Sequence record: MN158215
Reading direction: 5' to 3' (one strand)
Length of the DNA stretch: 51,448 bases
Source of the DNA: Escherichia phage BEK12B
Part shown: piece after piece, positions 18,766 to 51,053 of the stretch
How the letters are laid out: each line of letters opens with the position of its first letter
Numbering within the stretch: the stretch's first letter is position 1
Translations under genes and position numbers: made by a program
Notes under the pieces: model-generated
Told to the model about the DNA's origin: nothing
The model's database searches: none
The model's input: only the letters and a program-made list of their open reading frames with translations

Positions 18766-20328
18766 CTTGATTCCAGCGAGGCGGTACATTCTTCCAACCG
18801 GATCATCTGCCATGTTCATTTCAATGTTAACCGCATCAATCAATGTGTCAACAATATCATCGTGTGGCGCTGAATCATCATAAGCAAAAGCCGCAACCTC
18901 CGCAAGTATCTCAGCCAGCATAGGATGCGATTCTGGAAGTGCTACGCGTCCTGCGCGCATTACTGGCGCTGCGTCCATTGCACGAGTAACCTTGTCTTTA
19001 TCACGCTGAACGGGATTGATCTTGATCATGATTTTTTTCGCTGCACTCTGAATCAAACCAGTGCCAGACGATTTATCTTCAACATGAATCCTTCGCAATG
19101 TTCCGCATTCTTTATTGCGCTTCCAACACTGATTCACGAATGCAACAAAATTCGTCTCAAGGTCCGGTGCTTCCCATTTTCCGCGAACGCCATCAATGAA
19201 GTAAACGCGATCTTTATACATCCCCCAATAACAGATCACGGAGTAGTCGTTAAGCTCCCCTGTTTTCTGTGCGGTATCAACCGTGATAAATGTATATTCA
19301 AAGCGATCCGGTTTTGGTAGCGTGCATTTCTCGCTGCTGCCGTAATACTGAAACCACTCTGTTTTAAACACGTTACCGCCAAGCGCAACAGGCTGTTGCT
19401 GATACTGACTAGCGAACGTGTACGGATCAGCATTTCGAAGCGCAAGTAATTCATCCGCGCTTTCCTTAGCAGGCCAGAACGAATAATGAGCAACACCATC
19501 AATCATCACTGGCTTACTGGACAAAACATCGCGATCAAACTCAGGCTTTAACCAATCAGGAAGCGTTTCGCGATATTCCTTAGTAACGAGCGCCGGAATA
19601 CTAACCACCTTAAACTTGATGCCGCCCATGCCGCCGTTTGTCATGAACCATGTTGAATCATTGACGTGTAGGCGTTGCTGAACCATCACAATTGGCGTGG
19701 TGTCCTTCATTCTACGCGATCGAACCGTGTTCTTTAGGCGCATGTGTCCGGCTTCGCGCTTTGTTTTTGATAGTTGATCATCAGGCTTATCTGGGTCGTC
19801 AAGAACCAGCATACCAGTAAAACCATCATCCATGTAACCGCCACGCAAACCAGTTACCTGACCACCAATAGATCGCGAATTTAGTTGCAACCAGACCTTT
19901 CCATCTCCATTAAGTACAGCTATATCTTTCGCGCTTGCTTTTGCCATCTTGCAAGGCCATAGCTCTTGCCATTCTGGAGAACCGATAATCTCCCTTACTC
20001 TAATGCTGTTTTGCTGCACAAGGCCATCACTAAACGAAAGGTTTAGATTTCGCACCTTCTTGCTTTTCAGCATTGCGTAAACTGGCATGTGGATCGAGAA
20101 TATTTCCGTTTTTGACGAACCAGGAGCAACGTTGAAAATCACGTTCTGCTCCTTGCCACTAATCACATCTTCAAGGTATCGGCATATATATGATAAATGC
20201 CAATTACCTAAAAACTTTTGCCCCTGTAGCAAGTTAAACCAAATGCGGATCATTTTTTCGAATGAGTGAGCGCTCATTTCTTTAATGGCGCGTTTCTGCG
20301 CCGCTGTTAAGTCTTCCCAAATCAGCAT
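18760..20328 (-). CDS. terminase large subunit
   Basis: 522 aa; ATPase-like N-terminus (VLDDPDKPDD Walker B-like) and nuclease-like C-terminus; follows small subunit. Confidence 0.85.
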   Translation of the reverse strand: MLIWEDLTAAQKRAIKEMSAHSFEKMIRIWFNLLQGQKFLGNWHLSYICRYLEDVISGKEQNVIFNVAPGSSKTEIFSIHMPVYAMLKSKKVRNLNLSFSDGLVQQNSIRVREIIGSPEWQELWPCKMAKASAKDIAVLNGDGKVWLQLNSRSIGGQVTGLRGGYMDDGFTGMLVLDDPDKPDDQLSKTKREAGHMRLKNTVRSRRMKDTTPIVMVQQRLHVNDSTWFMTNGGMGGIKFKVVSIPALVTKEYRETLPDWLKPEFDRDVLSSKPVMIDGVAHYSFWPAKESADELLALRNADPYTFASQYQQQPVALGGNVFKTEWFQYYGSSEKCTLPKPDRFEYTFITVDTAQKTGELNDYSVICYWGMYKDRVYFIDGVRGKWEAPDLETNFVAFVNQCWKRNKECGTLRRIHVEDKSSGTGLIQSAAKKIMIKINPVQRDKDKVTRAMDAAPVMRAGRVALPESHPMLAEILAEVAAFAYDDSAPHDDIVDTLIDAVNIEMNMADDPVGRMYRLAGIKK

Positions 20329-20849
20329 TATATCTTCTCCAGAATGTCAATTACCGCCTCTTTGACCTCCTCTGCCGTTACAGCGTCAACGCTTGCGCTC
20401 GTGTTATTCTCAATGGTAACGGTAGCTGGCTTTTCAATGCCTATCTCTTTACCAATGAATCCGGCGTTAACAATATTGTTTGCTGCAAGCTGGAATTTTT
20501 GCTCGTAAACAACACCGTCGATAAAGTCCATAACATCGCTGAATCCTGGCTCGCGTCGCCATTTTTCAAGAACGGAAGCAGAAAGCCCAGCGAATAAGCG
20601 GAATCCATTTAAGGTGAACACGCGCGGCTTGTGAATCTTGCTTTCGTATACATCACCCTGAAAGGATGCCGTTTCCGCCGCCTGTATATGGTTTTCCTCG
20701 GCCCACGTAAAGTAACGGACAGCCAGATCAAATACCTGCTCCGGCGTGTACTTGTGCGCCTTTGTCATTTTTGCAATATCGCCATATTGCTTATTATATA
20801 GTTTTTTAAAATTGCAAGCCTTTACTGCTGGCTCAACGTTTTTAGCCAT
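20328..20849 (-). CDS. terminase small subunit (position-based)
   Basis: 173 aa ORF immediately upstream of large terminase, stop/start overlap. Confidence 0.5.
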   Translation of the reverse strand: MAKNVEPAVKACNFKKLYNKQYGDIAKMTKAHKYTPEQVFDLAVRYFTWAEENHIQAAETASFQGDVYESKIHKPRVFTLNGFRLFAGLSASVLEKWRREPGFSDVMDFIDGVVYEQKFQLAANNIVNAGFIGKEIGIEKPATVTIENNTSASVDAVTAEEVKEAVIDILEKI

Positions 20850-28536: not shown

Positions 28537-28737
28537 TGAATTTTCTCCCGTATTGGTTGCGCTTAGATGTGGCGCATTATGACCATGCAGCCTGGTGGTG
28601 TCAATATGTTTTCTCTGTTTTGGCTGCATTTTTTATCAAAATGCTGTTGCCTGATAACAAATGACACAGCTTAAGTCATTGTTTTAACTTGAAAATATTG
28701 GCTTGTTTAGCTGGTTGACGGAGGATTGCCACTCCCC

Positions 28738-28930
28738 CATACATATATACATACAAAATCACCACATATCACCATTGATTAAAAAACATACAATCACACA
28801 TACATATTCACAAAAACAATACCACCTACCAATATACCCATGAAACAAGGATAACAACAGATAACAGTTATAATTATATATATAACTAACTTATTGATTT
28901 TATGGGTATATATATATATTTATATTTGTT
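28738..28930 (+). repeat. G-poor A/C-rich module A
   Basis: ordered blocks atacatac / aaaatcaccaca / acagataaca / ttattgattttatgggtatatat shared with 50461..50640. Confidence 0.6.
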
Positions 28931-29194
28931 TTTTTTGTTATGTCAACGCGATTTCTGTTATCGCCAGTTGCGGAGGGCTATTTGGCATAACAACGGGAAC
29001 GAAAGAAACAGAATTGCTCGCCAGGATTGCCGGAAAGGATGCGAGAGGACCGTGTTTCTCTATCCCCTCCGCACAAAAAGTTAATCAACTGATTAAAATT
29101 GATCAAACTCAAAGTCTCACAATCCAGGTGATCGCGAATGAGTTATTCCTGTTATTCCTGATTAATGGAATAGATGGAATAATAACCAGTCGGC

Positions 29195-29216
29195 AAATAG
29201 CACTTTTTGTTAAAAC
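29195..29216 (+). promoter_or_regulatory. conserved element copy plus TACATT
   Basis: AAATAGCACTTTTTGTTAAAAC then -10-like TACATT 18 nt downstream, upstream of gene 29275. Confidence 0.55.
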
Positions 29217-29274
29217 TGAATCCGCCTGATCGGGTACATTACACACATCGAAACGAAACGCTCAGGAGATAGCA

Positions 29275-33314: not shown

Positions 33315-34898
33315 ATGAATTTTTCGTTTGAAACCAATAAACTAACACCAAAACAAATTATAGAATTAGCTGATGCGCAAGGATTGTCTCCGGTGCGCGT
33401 GTCCATTCAGGCTAACGGATACCGTCAATCGTCCAGCTTTTGGGGTGGGGTTAATGATGTTAATAACGGAAACGATCGCTACCCTATAATTTCTCTTGGC
33501 AATGATGTTGATGTTGTTGGTAAGTTGGCGCGCAACATTGCTCGATCAGTTCAGTTCCCTGAATCATCGGCATATATGCATTTTATCGGATGTGTGTCTG
33601 CTGCAATGCTTGGACGCTTCACTGTTGAGTATCACGGAACGGATCAGCCGACCGCTCTTTATGTTGTCACAAGCCAGCCTCCTTCAACTGGTAAATCTGC
33701 CGTTAACAGCCTGGCGCTTGCTCCTATGGTTGCTGAAGTAGAAAGAATTAATGATCAGCGAAAGAAGGAACGAAAAAAGATTCAGGCAAAGTTGGCAGGT
33801 CTTGCAAAAGAGATGAAAAGCGAGCGATCTGGCGCTGACATGGAATCGCTATACCAGGAGAAAGAAGATCTTGAAGAAAAACTTGAAAAGATGTGTGACA
33901 TTGTTTTCCCTGTGTCCGATACCACGCCGGAAGGACTTGCAAGAATCAACAATCGCCAGGGTAACTTTGCTGTAATTTCAGACGAGGCAACGAGTATTAA
34001 CAGCCTTTTAGGTCTGACATATGCCAATAGCGAACGCAAAACAAACAGCGAACTTGTGCTGAAAGCATGGGATCACGGTCATGTTTCTATAGCTCGCGCA
34101 AACGCTGACAACAATATGAGTTTTAAAGCTCTTGGATGTATGGCGGTAATTGCCCAGGATGAAACAATCAATGCCATCATGGATGCAGGATCGCGAGGTA
34201 TCGGTGTAAGTGAGCGTTATTTGCTTGTGCGTGAGGAATCATTTTTAGGCCGTAGAAAGTTTGTTGATGATAACGGTGACTCTACTTATGAACCTGTTGA
34301 TGGGGAACTGAAAAGCCAATATTTCAAGCTGATCCATAACATAATGAGCGAATCAAACATCCAGCTTAAGATCAGCAAATCAGCAATGCGAGTGCTTAAC
34401 ATGGCTCGTCAGGAGATGGAACCGCATCTTGCTGATGGCGGAAAGTATTCGCATACAATGCTGCGAGGTGCGCTTGGCAAAATGGATAAGCAGGTGATCA
34501 GGATTGCTTCGGTTTTGCACACTATCCGCAATTGGTTTAATCCTGGTGGATACCCTCAGAAGTCTAAAGAGATTGAGGTTGAAACCGTTCAGGAAGCATT
34601 GCTGATGTTTAGCGAGTTGAGCAAAACATACATTAGCGCCGCAAACGCTTCTGGCTATGCTGGTGATGATGCTGAAATGGGTAAACTAATCGAGATCATC
34701 ACTCGACACGGCAAGGCTAATAAGGGAATCTTGAATGTGCGCGCCATATATGAGGCAGCACGAAAAGTTAAGCCTTTTGTTGGTCAGGCTGGCGTAATGA
34801 AGCGCATGGAAACGCAACTGCTTCCGATGCTTGAGGAAAGAAATTATATTTGTGTGATTAATGGCGTTGTTTTCGTAAATCCAACATTGCTGGGGTGA
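33315..34898 (+). CDS. P-loop protein of unknown function (possible replication-associated ATPase)
   Basis: 527 aa from MNFSFETN after RBS AAAAGGAG; Walker A-like SQPPSTGKSAVNS. Confidence 0.45.
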   Translation: MNFSFETNKLTPKQIIELADAQGLSPVRVSIQANGYRQSSSFWGGVNDVNNGNDRYPIISLGNDVDVVGKLARNIARSVQFPESSAYMHFIGCVSAAMLGRFTVEYHGTDQPTALYVVTSQPPSTGKSAVNSLALAPMVAEVERINDQRKKERKKIQAKLAGLAKEMKSERSGADMESLYQEKEDLEEKLEKMCDIVFPVSDTTPEGLARINNRQGNFAVISDEATSINSLLGLTYANSERKTNSELVLKAWDHGHVSIARANADNNMSFKALGCMAVIAQDETINAIMDAGSRGIGVSERYLLVREESFLGRRKFVDDNGDSTYEPVDGELKSQYFKLIHNIMSESNIQLKISKSAMRVLNMARQEMEPHLADGGKYSHTMLRGALGKMDKQVIRIASVLHTIRNWFNPGGYPQKSKEIEVETVQEALLMFSELSKTYISAANASGYAGDDAEMGKLIEIITRHGKANKGILNVRAIYEAARKVKPFVGQAGVMKRMETQLLPMLEERNYICVINGVVFVNPTLLG

Positions 34899-36828: not shown

Positions 36829-37040
36829 TTACCCCTGATTTCAATTGCTTTTTTAAAGTCACCACTATCAAGCGCCTTCTGGAAGGCTTTACTATCACGC
36901 CACCGCAGATAAGCGCCCCATACGCCGAAAATAGCCATCAATACGAAGCTGGCAATTGCAATTGCCGTTTGTCCTGTTACTGCTCCAGTGATTGATGCGC
37001 CGCCCGTGCCGGACGTTGCAGCGTTCAAAAAATCTTTCAT
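36825..37040 (-). CDS. holin
   Basis: 71 aa from MKDFLN after RBS AAAGAGGA; transmembrane segment and charged C-terminus; directly upstream of endolysin. Confidence 0.6.
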
Positions 37041-37102
37041 ATTTAGATCCTCTTTATTCAAATGTCAATAGTGATGATTGTATTTTAAACATTGTGCTGA
37101 AA

Positions 37103-37448
37103 NNNNNNNNNNNNNNNNNNNNNNNNNNNNNNNNNNNNNNNNNNNNNNNNNNNNNNNNNNNNNNNNNNNNNNNNNNNNNNNTCTTCAAGGAGTGGAGAAG
37201 TAAGAGCAAGCGCAGCACCGATAGCGACGGACACGATGCTTTTTCTTGCGCNNNNNNNNNNNNNNNNNNNNNNNNNNNNNNNNNNNNNNNNNNNNNNNNN
37301 NNNNNNNNNNNNNNNNNNNNNNNNNNNNNNNNNNNNNNNNNNNNNNNNNNNNNNNNNNNNNNNNNNNNNNNNNNNNNNNNNNNNNNNNNNNNNNNNNNNN
37401 NNNNATACGAAGCTGGCAATTGCAATTGCCGTTTGTCCTGNNNNNNNN
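37103..37448. other. N-masked gap containing fragments duplicated from 36762..37075
   Basis: three N runs (79, 153, 8 nt) separating exact copies of holin/endolysin sequence. Confidence 0.9.
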
Positions 37449-37576
37449 ACGTTGCAGCGTTCAAAAAATCTTTCATATTTAGATCCTCTTTATTCAAATG
37501 TCAATAGTGCTGAAAAAATAAATAAAAAAAGGAGACTTAAAAATCAAGCCTCCTTATAAGTTAATGTTTTATATGG

Positions 37577-43494: not shown

Positions 43495-43968
43495 ATGAAA
43501 GAACAGCGAATCGCGGTATCAACTGGCAAGATTGACAAGCGCACAATTAATGGCAATAACGGAACCAGACGAGGCAAGGATAAGAAGAAACGCAAGCGCC
43601 CTACAGGATACTATGTTTTAAAAGATGAAGTGCGCGCCGGACTAAAAGCGCGACTTGACATCCTTATTGAGTATTACGGAAGTGTATCAGCAATGGCAAA
43701 ACGTCTTAACGTTAGCCAGCAAACTGTAAATCAGTGGCGTGTTCGCGGTATGATTTCAGCTGCTGGCGCTCAAAAGGTGCATAACGATTACAAAAAATAT
43801 GGATGTCAAGGCTATCGCGCATCATTCTGTCGTCCAGACCTGCGATTTGATTCCAATGGCAAACCGCTCACAAAGAGATGTGATAAGCGTGAAATGTTGC
43901 GAGTGGTAAGAATGTCAGATTATGAGCCTGGCGGATTCCTGTATAAACCTGAAAGCACTAATTGCTAA
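43495..43968 (+). CDS. HTH DNA-binding protein (candidate transcriptional regulator)
   Basis: segment SVSAMAKRLNVSQQTVNQWRVRG resembles helix-turn-helix; basic N-terminus; divergent from helicase promoter. Confidence 0.5.
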   Translation: MKEQRIAVSTGKIDKRTINGNNGTRRGKDKKKRKRPTGYYVLKDEVRAGLKARLDILIEYYGSVSAMAKRLNVSQQTVNQWRVRGMISAAGAQKVHNDYKKYGCQGYRASFCRPDLRFDSNGKPLTKRCDKREMLRVVRMSDYEPGGFLYKPESTNC

Positions 43969-43975
43969 AAACAAT

Positions 43976-44010
43976 GCCTGGCATGATGTTATCATCTGTC
44001 AGGCTTTTTT
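43976..44010 (+). terminator. terminator-like hairpin between HTH gene and primase
   Basis: gcctggcatgatgttatcatctgtcaggc followed by TTTTTTGTTT. Confidence 0.45.
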
Positions 44011-44023
44011 GTTTGAGGTGCAT

Positions 44024-44956
44024 ATGAACAACGAAAACTTTATGGTTTATCAAAAGGAAGATATTCTCCCATATATGCAGGGATTATGGCGTGAGGCGCT
44101 ACAAAGTATTTGCGGTCTTCCAAATGAAGTTTTTAACGGCAAGCATCAATCTTGCCCCCACTGCGGCGGAAAGGATCGCTTTAGATGGACTGATAAACTT
44201 GGAGATAAAAAAGGCGACGGAGGCGCTATCTGCAACGTGTGCGGGAACGATACTGGAATTGGTTGGATCATGAAGCTAACCGGAGAACCTTACAGCGAAG
44301 TGATCAATATTTTGGGTCGCTTTCTTGGAAAAGTTCCGCAGGACTATAGAATCAAGGCAAATAAGCGAGTATCTCGTGATTCTGGTTATTCGTTTGGGAA
44401 ACAGGCAAGCCATGAATGCTGCGAGCGCGTTATGTCAAAAACACTAAAACTTGATCGCACGCCGTTAAGCACCTATGAAGGGATATATCCTTCTGAAGAT
44501 GGTTATTATGAATGCGGCGTTAAAGATGGTCGATACATTCACGCGTTACCATGTTACCTGGTACATTCAGATGAAATTGATGATGAAATGTGCAATGTGC
44601 TTTTCATTGATGAAGAAGGTAATCAGTCTTTTCTAGCAAAGGACTACACGAGAGGGTCGATTGTTAGAACCGGAAGTACAGATAAGACTATCTATCTTTG
44701 CGTTGACTGGATTGATGCGCAACATATTCACCTTGCAACTGGTCAGGAGGTTTGGGCCTGCTTTGATGCAACTAACATTGAGATTGTAGCTTACAGGTAT
44801 AAAGGCAACAGAAGAATGCGAGTTGTCTGCAAGAGCACAGATCGTGACGCGATCATTGCTGCAGAGGAAAGAGGACTTGAAATTATGATGCCGATTAATG
44901 ATAATTACAGGCAAGGGATAGAGAGGAAGGTTTATAAACCTGAATTTCTTCTCTAA
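44024..44956 (+). CDS. DNA primase (zinc-ribbon type)
   Basis: CPHCGGKDRFRW...CNVCGND zinc-binding ribbon typical of phage primases; RBS GAGGTG. Confidence 0.6.
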   Translation: MNNENFMVYQKEDILPYMQGLWREALQSICGLPNEVFNGKHQSCPHCGGKDRFRWTDKLGDKKGDGGAICNVCGNDTGIGWIMKLTGEPYSEVINILGRFLGKVPQDYRIKANKRVSRDSGYSFGKQASHECCERVMSKTLKLDRTPLSTYEGIYPSEDGYYECGVKDGRYIHALPCYLVHSDEIDDEMCNVLFIDEEGNQSFLAKDYTRGSIVRTGSTDKTIYLCVDWIDAQHIHLATGQEVWACFDATNIEIVAYRYKGNRRMRVVCKSTDRDAIIAAEERGLEIMMPINDNYRQGIERKVYKPEFLL

Positions 44957-50276: not shown

Positions 50277-50306
50277 CTTTAATGCTCCTCGTTGCTTTGT
50301 GTGTGC

Positions 50307-50334
50307 ATTGTAGCCATTTGGTTGATTTAGTCAA
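50307..50334 (-). promoter_or_regulatory. canonical sigma70-type promoter for recombination operon
   Basis: minus sense TTGACT - 16 nt - TACAAT, about 30 nt upstream of exonuclease start. Confidence 0.55.
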
Positions 50335-50460
50335 TAGTTGTTTTGTTTTTTCTGTTTTCTAAACGTTCTCAGATGGCAATAAAACAAATTTGACGCGTAA
50401 GTTAATGATTAATATGTGTTATTTTTCTTGTTCCCTTGTTCTATCAGATACGCCGGATTA

Positions 50461-50640
50461 TATACATACACATGAATGATGGCACATACAGATACTCAGA
50501 AAGAAAAATCACCACAAACAACCAAAACCACAAGAAACACAGATAACAAGAAAAAACAAATATACATACATAAATAAATAAACTATTGATTTTATATGTA
50601 TATATCTATTTTATTGATTATTTATTGTTCTTATGTTGGC
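50461..50640 (+). repeat. G-poor A/C-rich module B
   Basis: same ordered blocks as 28738..28930, with TTATTGATT repeated three times. Confidence 0.6.
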
Positions 50641-50701
50641 TAAGATTTGCGCTAAATTTACGCCGCCTTAAATCCGATAACACCGGAAAACAAAAAATAA
50701 C

Positions 50702-50722
50702 AAATAGCACTTTTTGCTAAAC
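50702..50722 (+). promoter_or_regulatory. conserved element copy plus TATAGT
   Basis: AAATAGCACTTTTTGCTAAAC then 18 nt then TATAGT, upstream of lipoprotein gene. Confidence 0.5.
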
Positions 50723-50777
50723 TCGGCTTGCCGGATCGTGTATAGTTACAGCCAACAACAACTAAGGAGTATTGAAG

Positions 50778-51053
50778 ATGAAAAAATTAATCGCAGTTAT
50801 CGCCACCGTAGCCGCCCTGACCGGATGTTCTTCTTCGCCTACTGGCAACTTCAAGGAGATCGATTGCACGGCAAAATTTAACGTTAAAACATTCCCTGTT
50901 AACGGATTCCATGAAGTTAAAATTAATGCGGTCCGCGAAAACAGATTCAGCCAAAAGCAATACAGGTTGAGCGTTGACAATAAAGAAGTTAAATTTATCA
51001 ACCGTTGGCAAGATGAAAGAAAATTCATTGATTTGAGGTGCAAAAATGGCTGA
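50778..51053 (+). CDS. lipoprotein, candidate superinfection-exclusion (Cor/Llp-like) protein
   Basis: signal peptide with lipobox LTGC; RBS AAGGAG; located in fibre/receptor-binding locus. Confidence 0.55.
   Translation: MKKLIAVIATVAALTGCSSSPTGNFKEIDCTAKFNVKTFPVNGFHEVKINAVRENRFSQKQYRLSVDNKEVKFINRWQDERKFIDLRCKNG

Follow-up and report, generated by a model that had tools for sequence, protein, structure and literature searches.

The analysed window is the whole stretch of 51,448 nucleotides from Escherichia phage BEK12B (sequence record MN158215), which belongs to Hanrivervirus (Tempevirinae, Drexlerviridae) and is essentially a whole T1-like genome. Two of its intergenic gaps, here called region A and region B and both large by phage standards, sit between divergent genes, in keeping with the preliminary description of the locus as a pair of divergent control regions. 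The features that frame the analysis are as follows (positions are those of the window):

28537-29274: region A, a gap of ~740 bp between the leftward DUF7174 gene and the first gene of the rightward block
50277-50778: region B, a gap of ~500 bp flanked by the leftward recE-erf-ssb operon and by a rightward gene (the Cor superinfection-exclusion protein, according to annotation in relatives)
28576-28604, minus strand: strong sigma-70 promoter (TTGACA-17-CATAAT) reading leftward in region A, ~130 bp to the left of module A, equal to TLS P01
50307-50334, minus strand: strong leftward sigma-70 promoter of region B, serving the recE-erf-ssb operon (TTGACT-16-TACAAT), ~127 bp left of module B, equal to TLS P51
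29196-29214, plus strand: copy A of a 21-nt repeat (TLS DR family), preceding region A's rightward gene block
50703-50721: copy B of the 21-nt repeat, abutted by the distal triplet of module B
29060-29135: pac-like segment, found in region A only, with ATCA repeats, two GATC sites (29101 and 29130) and an IHF core (29083-29095)
20328-20849: gene for the small terminase subunit, TerS (PF16677)
33315-34898, plus strand: DUF3987 protein (PF13148), an MCM/Orc1-Cdc6-like AAA+ ATPase with a C-terminal winged helix, candidate trans factor
43495-43968, plus strand: Cro-like HTH protein, directly upstream of the primase, candidate trans factor
43922-44956, plus strand: P4-alpha-like Zn-ribbon primase (BLASTP 4e-12 to the N-terminal part of P4 alpha)

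Over the regions compared, A and B are 100% identical to those of Escherichia phages BEC3 and BEK7, and neither region matched plasmids or E. coli genomes.

Anatomy of the paired modules

The preliminary description had claimed that four blocks recur in the same order in 28738-28930 and 50461-50640, and all four are present there in identical order:

ATACATAC: at 28747 in A and at 50462/50562 in B
AAAATCACCACA, a 12-mer: at 28755 in A and 50505 in B, the sole two plus-strand copies in the window
ACAGATAACA, a 10-mer: at 28857 in A and 50539 in B, the sole two plus-strand copies in the window
TATTGATTTTAT[GA][GT]GTATATAT: at 28892 in A and 50584 in B

The last block needs one correction: although present in both regions, in region B it starts with cTATTG, where tTATTG had been given. 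Pairwise alignment of 28700-28960 with 50430-50680 yielded a local score of 100 over ~150 nt, as against 23.2±3.3 (maximum 44 in 1000) for dinucleotide shuffles and 27.7±5.2 (maximum 52) for shuffles within 30-nt blocks, which keep the local composition; the likeness of A and B is therefore far beyond what AT-rich DNA would give by chance. A CCC/GGG compensatory pair between A and B was considered and dropped, the positions being non-homologous.

The plus strand is nearly free of G in both copies, as had been claimed (11 G in 193 nt in region A, 17 G in 180 nt in region B), and, once an N-masked stretch is left out, 28729-28828 (1 G) and 50504-50603 (5 G) rank as the two 100-mers poorest in G across the window, compared with a mean of 20 G per 100. 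The window holds no further copy of the module; the other spots of low stability or low G content, at ~21100 (within coding sequence) and ~35250, lack the blocks.

From left to right, A and B follow a common plan: the leftward sigma-70 promoter, 5-6 TGTW-oriented sites, a TAAGT-N3-TGATT box, a GC box, an A/C-rich G-poor tract, an xxAACA triplet, an AT-rich core with a minus-strand IHF consensus, a T-rich stretch with 2-3 inverted TGTT sites, a second GC box and a distal triplet. The elements of module A are:

28605-28737: left arm, with five TGTW-oriented sites (5 reverse versus 1 forward)
28671-28687: TAAGT-N3-TG(A/T)TTT box, kept in relatives
28722-28730: GC box AGGATTGCC, repeated at 29023-29031 (repeat D5)
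28738-28849, plus strand: A/C-rich G-poor tract (A 56, C 30, G 3, T 23)
28842-28866, plus strand: proximal iteron-like triplet GAAACA / GATAACA / GATAACA, ACA ends 9 and 10 bp apart
28867-28926: AT-rich core, candidate DNA unwinding element
28887-28899, minus strand: perfect IHF core consensus WATCAANNNNTTR (AATCAATAAGTTA), predicted from sequence
28926-28962, plus strand: T-rich stretch with inverted sites TTTGTTTTTTTTGTTATG, and CTGTTATC at 28955-28962
28986-29010, plus strand: distal iteron-like triplet CATAACA / GGGAACG / AGAAACA, spaced 9 and 9 bp

Those of module B are:

50335-50460: left arm, with six TGTW-oriented sites
50397-50412: TAAGT-N3-TGATT box
50449-50458: GC box TACGCCGGAT, repeated as TACGCCGCCT at 50659-50668 (repeat D4)
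50461-50570, plus strand: A/C-rich G-poor tract (A 62, C 24, G 10, T 14)
50534-50558, plus strand: proximal iteron-like triplet GAAACA / GATAACA / AAAAACA, ACA ends 9 and 10 bp apart, as in A
50566-50625: AT-rich core, candidate DNA unwinding element
50579-50591, minus strand: predicted perfect IHF core consensus AATCAATAGTTTA, at a position homologous to that in A
50676-50702, plus strand: distal iteron-like triplet GATAACA / GGAAAACA / AATAACA, spaced 10 and 10 bp, abutting the 21-nt repeat

The triplets, which were read directly from the sequence, are phased at 9-10 bp at both the proximal and the distal position in both modules, and their repeats are short and degenerate. Each A/C-rich tract carries 9-11 WACA-oriented sites and 0 in the opposite orientation, the pattern of WACA and TGTW orientations being alike in A and B; the word GATAACA is concentrated in the two regions, which hold 6 of its 18 copies in the window (p 3e-6). 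By eye, the nearest DnaA box candidate in module A has 3 mismatches. Intrinsic curvature through phased A-tracts was rejected, since the spacings read by eye (19-30 bp) are not multiples of the helical repeat.

Physical properties and conservation

The AT-rich cores are the least stable duplexes of the window: among all 60-mers, core A (28867-28926) ranks first at -0.927 and core B (50566-50625) second at -0.946 kcal/mol per step, both ~4.5 sd away from the window mean (-1.356, sd 0.092 kcal/mol per step). The neighbouring tracts stand out in another respect, namely that their plus strands hardly fold. Across the 100-mers of the window single-strand folding averages -18.5±5.5 kcal/mol, with tracts A and B folding least; the least foldable 100-mer of all (50476-50575, plus strand) lies in tract B at 0.0 kcal/mol, and tract A reaches -0.4 kcal/mol for a 100-mer and a DNA minimum free energy (MFE) of -0.9 kcal/mol over its whole length. 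Cruciforms or hairpins in the AT-rich cores were discarded, as these fold no better than shuffled sequences (z -1.2 and -1.8). The cumulative GC skew of the window reaches its minimum at 28890, within module A, which agrees with an origin there, but the switch in gene orientation explains this position equally well.

Equivalent modules occupy these two syntenic positions also in T1, TLS, Rtp and 43 relatives from IMG/VR. The latter are distinct loci fetched via recE (recE identity down to ~62%), and at the region B position all 43 have 3-10 G per 100 nt, with (TA)n runs in most. For region A the DUF7174 gene returned a single locus, and the helicase gene was used as anchor instead; the module was seen in most of the loci so fetched that extend far enough upstream. 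In T1 the two most C-depleted plus-strand 100-mers sit in the two equivalent syntenic gaps, which is the same strand bias, because the T1 record is oriented opposite to the window; TLS and Rtp show the bias as T1 does, at the equivalent gaps.

In aligned relatives the triplets, the GC boxes, the AT-rich core and the T-rich stretch stay in place, and the IHF consensus is retained in most Tempevirinae relatives, while the repeat word at the positions around the core varies across several lineages: ATAACA in the window, GAAACA or GTGAACA in TLS-like phages, GTTACA/TGTWACA in T1, and GGGACAA or CTACCGCA in lineages further removed. TGTWACA occurs six times in the T1 genome, each time within the two equivalent regions, and in TLS, A and B have TTTGTTCTTTTTGT in common at the position of the T-rich stretch. 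The phased xxAACA/TGTTxx sites, the conserved IHF consensus and the repeat words that vary across several lineages argue for the factor-binding arrays that the preliminary description had put forward as one possible function.

Footprint analysis of region B over 25 distinct Tempevirinae-like copies gave the strongest signals at the promoter (the most conserved footprint of the region), its adjoining sites, the GC box, both triplets (1.67 for the proximal; 1.94 for the distal, at 50687) and the IHF/AT core. In sequence, the left part of tract B shows the lowest conservation of the region (information content 0.87-1.14 at 50477-50506). Judging from these aligned copies, selection on the A/C tract acts on the composition of one strand and not on its sequence; that the composition is conserved while the sequence is free points to a single-strand property.

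Within a genome, the two copies are closer to each other than to distant orthologues. The A-B score in T1 is 66, compared with 31-52 for T1 against Tempevirinae, and that in the window is 100; the A-B core of Rtp, as read from the alignment, is close to 90% identical over ~125 nt. A test for a 7-mer spectrum common to the A and B modules of one genome gave only a weak signal (diagonal 0.33 versus off-diagonal 0.23), a point against the origin reading, as are the short, degenerate repeats. TLS-like phages retain the entire module B, distal triplet included, without any rightward gene, and there the module leads directly into the tail gene terminator.

Transcriptional, packaging and other readings

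Three intergenic sigma-70 promoters are predicted in TLS (Table S1), two of them in the regions equivalent to A and B. In the window the leftward promoters of A and B each obtained a PWM score of 13.5, the former being the top score in region A, whereas the third early promoter, which serves the Cro-like protein and the primase, lacks a module (its intergenic gap is 23 bp). The 'conserved promoter element' that had been said to follow each module is indeed there, AATAGCACTTTTTGYTAAA occurring at 29196 in A and 50703 in B at unequal spacing (266 versus 63 nt), and it is the 21-nt repeat already described for TLS/T1 (aaATAGCACnnnTTGnTAAAA), of which the window has 14 copies, all outside the modules and none inside.

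Considering that each module lies ~130 bp upstream of a scarce consensus sigma-70 promoter, and also upstream of the 21-nt repeat, the modules might be multi-site transcription control regions that play no part in replication, in which a regulator (e.g., the Cro-like HTH protein) and IHF would switch both flanking promoters. We deem this unlikely, yet it is the strongest rival of the origin reading: the TGTW sites adjoin the -35 element of the early promoter, the promoter and its neighbouring sites are among the best-conserved footprints, the third early promoter serves the gene of a Cro-like HTH protein (its matches in a PDB sequence search are limited to Cro-like HTH proteins), and control regions upstream of promoters, too, typically contain AT-rich DNA, phased sites and IHF sites. 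Yet that third promoter does without a module, TLS-like phages keep a full module B with neither rightward promoter nor gene, and the conserved avoidance of G on one strand and the extreme duplex instability would be superfluous for an operator array; moreover, direct-repeat sites generally suit monomer-binding initiators better than dimeric Cro-like proteins. A pure promoter-control role thus leaves some features unexplained, although origin and transcription control roles could coexist. Even should transcription control prove to be what the modules do, they would still mark out the family's early regulatory switch.

Packaging bears on region A through the genome ends of relatives. The T1 record begins with a 2.8-kb terminal repeat, the TLS record begins at pac, as placed by restriction digests (PMC11447400), and the genome end of SU57 has also been placed in the untranslated region equivalent to A. 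When aligned, the T1 and TLS ends fall ~200-260 bp to the right of AT-rich core A (roughly 29060-29135, the resolution of the published pac mapping being limited), in a segment absent from B; the distal triplet and the 21-nt repeat of region A enclose an additional ~250 bp that region B lacks. Since these ends map to the A-only segment, region A holds pac, and the part shared by A and B is something else, so that the packaging signal proposed earlier finds no support for the shared module.

One could still imagine TerS recognition arrays, in which module A would belong to pac and module B would be a secondary or pseudo-pac site, considering that pac and module A share an intergenic region in T1, TLS and SU57, that repeated protein sites are combined with an IHF site in lambda cosB and P1 pac, and that several GenBank records begin at or near a module. 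This is very improbable: the ends lie well off core A in DNA wholly missing from B, the interpretation of the TLS digests involved a single pac fragment (PMC11447400), the start points of circularly permuted records are largely arbitrary, and duplication of a pac site beside recE in every lineage would go unexplained.

The G-free, C-containing strand could alternatively work as RNA, either as a Rho loading (rut) site that would halt rightward or antisense transcription, or as a non-coding RNA. Its composition is rut-like, with ~100 nt that are G-poor, C-containing and structure-free (C/G ratio 10 in A and 2.4 in B) in line with the ~80 nt of C-rich, G-poor, unstructured RNA expected of such a site (MFE about 0 kcal/mol). 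However, a PWM scan found promoter-like sites inside the modules or at their borders to be not above the window background (105 hits scoring at least 9); those candidates were set aside, since such scores are common in AT-rich DNA and none is conserved in relatives by eye, and inspection by eye found no plus-strand TAnnnT -10 hexamer at the left border of either module. Transcription of the G-free strand is therefore not predicted, no rightward transcription unit is predicted to run into either module, and the Rfam 15 covariance models, run over the whole window at gathering score, matched no family. With no predicted promoter, no predicted incoming transcription unit and no Rfam match, a role at the RNA level is very unlikely.

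Functionless AT-rich spacers kept alike by gene conversion between the intergenic regions receive almost no weight from us, for, although the phage has an active RecE/Erf recombination system and the copies within a genome resemble each other more than distant orthologues, architecture, spacing and strand bias are kept at both sites across four subfamilies despite sequence turnover, and selection in a recombination-proficient phage would be expected to remove direct repeats separated by 22 kb unless they are needed.

Candidate paired origins and known systems

We consider that the modules may best be explained as paralogous, origin-like cis elements of a T1-family phage. Replication origin was the first of the functions named in the preliminary description, ahead of factor-binding array and packaging signal, and it appears to be the best-fitting candidate. 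Both modules carry phased short repeats (in degenerate words), an adjacent AT-rich element of low stability and, in the predicted IHF consensus, a site for a host architectural factor; a G-free strand and the genome's easiest-melting DNA join the phased repeats and the IHF-type site in both, which makes them the best candidates for the origins of the family. More specifically, we tentatively propose, with a confidence that falls a little short of even, that they form a pair of iteron-plus-unwinding-element origins, like oriL/oriR of SPP1 or ori/crr of P4. Origin identification was achieved neither in the TLS paper of 2024 (PMC11447400) nor in the SU57 paper of 2020, and the modules go unmentioned in both; our literature search found no transcriptome or origin mapping for the T1 family.

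As far as its sequence tells, the primase shows the phage to be equipped with replication initiation enzymes of its own. The AlphaFold2 model of the DUF3987 protein (pLDDT 87.6) found its best solved Foldseek matches among MCM subunits and Orc1/Cdc6 (E 4e-5 to 1e-3, TM about 0.3), and its isolated C-terminal domain gave weak matches (best E 0.03), nearly all of them to winged-helix domains. We rejected the idea that this winged helix is a P4-alpha-like origin-binding domain, the matches (best E 0.03) being generic winged-helix ones; BLASTP between the DUF3987 protein and P4 alpha gave no significant similarity, and a PDB sequence search with the helicase was uninformative. A comparison of repeat words with putative recognition helices showed two lineages with very different words to have similar helices.

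Under the origin reading, a phage-encoded DNA-binding protein would fill the phased sites that flank the core, IHF would bend the core, and the AT-rich core, as the easiest-melting DNA of the genome, would open. The neighbouring G-free strand, unable to fold back once unwound, would then remain open and could receive the MCM/Orc-like AAA+ protein, SSB and the P4-alpha-like primase, serving them as a landing strip. The early sigma-70 promoter ~130 bp away may aid opening through transcription. An MCM-like motor moving 3' to 5' on the G-free strand would travel leftward, co-directionally with the flanking early operons in both regions. The two copies might serve as primary and secondary origin, or as one origin and one auxiliary site; given that it adjoins recE-erf-ssb, module B could act as a protein-bound fork barrier leading to recombination-dependent, concatemer-forming replication, as proposed for SPP1 oriR. 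Sequence anatomy, physical properties, conservation and the offset from pac are what the analysis shows, whereas protein binding, melting, loading and a fork-barrier function of module B are inferred. In a bolder form of the proposal, which we hold to be improbable, the pair would be archaeal/eukaryotic-like origins, with phased initiator sites around an unwinding element, at which the DUF3987 AAA+ protein loads on a strand that selection has kept G-free and so free of structure, and module B would be the programmed switch to recombination-dependent replication.

The search is hereby narrowed to two elements of 200-300 bp with named sub-sites, which makes the question directly testable. T1 belongs to Delbrück's classic set of seven coliphages, and members of the Drexlerviridae count among the most frequently isolated coliphages. 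Further uses lie in phage engineering, in explaining fast DNA synthesis and concatemers, and in a function for the widespread DUF3987 family.

Among the elements already described, the 21-nt repeat of TLS/T1 shares the intergenic regions with the modules, one copy lying downstream of each, but it is a separate element outside the homologous modules, at the different distances given above (266 nt in A, 63 nt in B).

At archaeal origins, inverted ORB elements bound by Orc1/Cdc6 flank an AT-rich unwinding element at which MCM is loaded. The likeness here is that, among solved structures, MCM subunits and Orc1/Cdc6, with a C-terminal winged helix, appear to come closest to the modelled phage AAA+ protein; the structures match poorly, however (TM about 0.3), and the repeat words of the window are shorter than ORB elements.

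To our knowledge, no long strand-biased G-free tract has been reported for the origins of SPP1, with which the comparison is one of organisation. [quoted passage not shown] Its second origin copy has been proposed to stall forks and so to lead to recombination-dependent concatemers via exonuclease, SSAP and SSB (PMC6316719), and module B lies directly beside recE-erf-ssb. The two differ in that SPP1 employs gp38 (the origin binder), gp39 and a DnaB-type helicase, whereas the phage of the window has the DUF3987 AAA+ protein and a P4-type primase, and in that oriL lies within gene 38, while both modules here are intergenic.

In P4, ori and crr share the iteron TGTTCACC, which occurs in runs of two or three at 9-11 bp and in both orientations beside AT-rich DNA; the primase of the window is homologous to the primase part of P4 alpha, and the TLS-like repeat word GTGAACA / TGTTCAC matches the core of the P4 iteron. 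On the other hand, alpha unites primase, helicase and origin-binding domains, whereas here the primase is separate and the DUF3987 protein lacks BLASTP similarity to alpha, its winged helix having no specific likeness to the origin-binding domain; the repeats of the window are also far more degenerate than the near-perfect 8-mers of P4. If the origin reading is true, the modules would join a kind of element already known, set apart by the unusual composition of one strand; in the bolder form of the proposal, a landing strand selected for its composition would be an origin feature without description in other phages.

Sequence elements around the two modules

Each of the two homologous G-poor, origin-like non-coding modules (module A, 28738-28930; module B, 50461-50640) is bracketed by GC-rich boxes in direct repeat, and one copy of a 21-nt repeat lies to the right of each. 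The right side of the intergenic gap that holds module A additionally carries a pac-like segment, found in this gap only, and an inverted repeat situated a short distance upstream of the 21-nt copy at 29196. The elements are as follows:

28722-28730 and 29023-29031, GC box AGGATTGCC in two copies, bracketing module A
50449-50458 and 50659-50668, GC boxes TACGCCGGAT and TACGCCGCCT, respectively, bracketing module B
29060-29135, pac-like segment with ATCA repeats, two GATC sites and an IHF consensus
29083-29095, plus strand, perfect IHF consensus within the pac-like segment
29143-29182, inverted repeat TTATTCCTGTTATTCC / GGAATAGATGGAATAA
14487, 22805, 24144, 26714, 27763, 29196, 30069, 32098, 33243, 39440, 40481, 43464, 46957 and 50703, copies of the 21-nt repeat AATAGCACTTTTTGYTAAA

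At the places equivalent to the GC boxes the relative Rtp has a palindromic box (ATTTCCGCGGA), and TGCGGA(A/G)G occurs to the right of module A in many relatives. In the T1 and TLS records, the ends of the genome align with the pac-like segment. The inverted repeat is likely a regulator site; a similar ATTCC...GGAATA pair was found in T1 and in one IMG/VR relative, and the equivalent place in TLS is occupied by a tandem palindrome of other sequence.

The 21-nt repeat, taken in the preliminary description for a conserved promoter element, is present in the window in 14 copies with 0-3 mismatches (chance expectation, 0.1), and these copies are the direct-repeat family of TLS and T1. In the two copies examined, a -10-like hexamer lies 21-22 nt past the TTGYTA of the repeat, a spacing that exceeds that of a normal -35/-10 pair.

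Skew minima, record starts and a masked stretch

Along the window, cumulative GC skew is lowest at 28890 (within module A) and cumulative AT skew at 50442 (left edge of module B); since both positions fall on switches of gene orientation, they provide no independent evidence. The GenBank assemblies of several close relatives start within a module or at most 100 nt from one; either the assembly may have broken in AT-rich repeats, or the records may have been aligned on purpose to the point where T1 starts:

MN158211 (BEK1-23), module A at 6-266
MN158217 (BEC3), module B at 1-127
MK373798 (G29-2), module A at 102-358

Elsewhere, a perfect 60-nt direct repeat (37014-37073 = 37450-37509) flanks the three N-masked runs of the window (37103-37181, 37252-37404 and 37441-37448; 240 N in total). 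Given that the BEC3 and BEK7 records are 417 nt shorter than the window, the stretch 37014-37509 may have been duplicated or inserted, or may stem from a problem in the assembly.

A DUF3987 protein and the iterons of P4

The DUF3987 'helicase' (33315-34898, plus strand) yielded a confident model, that of an AAA+ ATPase resembling MCM and Orc1-Cdc6 and carrying a winged helix at its C-terminus. Its reading frame is listed from 33261, and judging by the length of the homologues (527 aa) the true start is probably 18 codons downstream.

The TLS-like phages carry a repeat word, TGTTCACG, which in TLS lies at 412-428 (in tandem, at 412 and 420) and again at 28996. It has a 7-nt core in common with the type-1 iteron TGTTCACC of satellite phage P4 (P4 9310-9413), and this likeness between the two sequences may be due to chance or to a related DNA-binding specificity.
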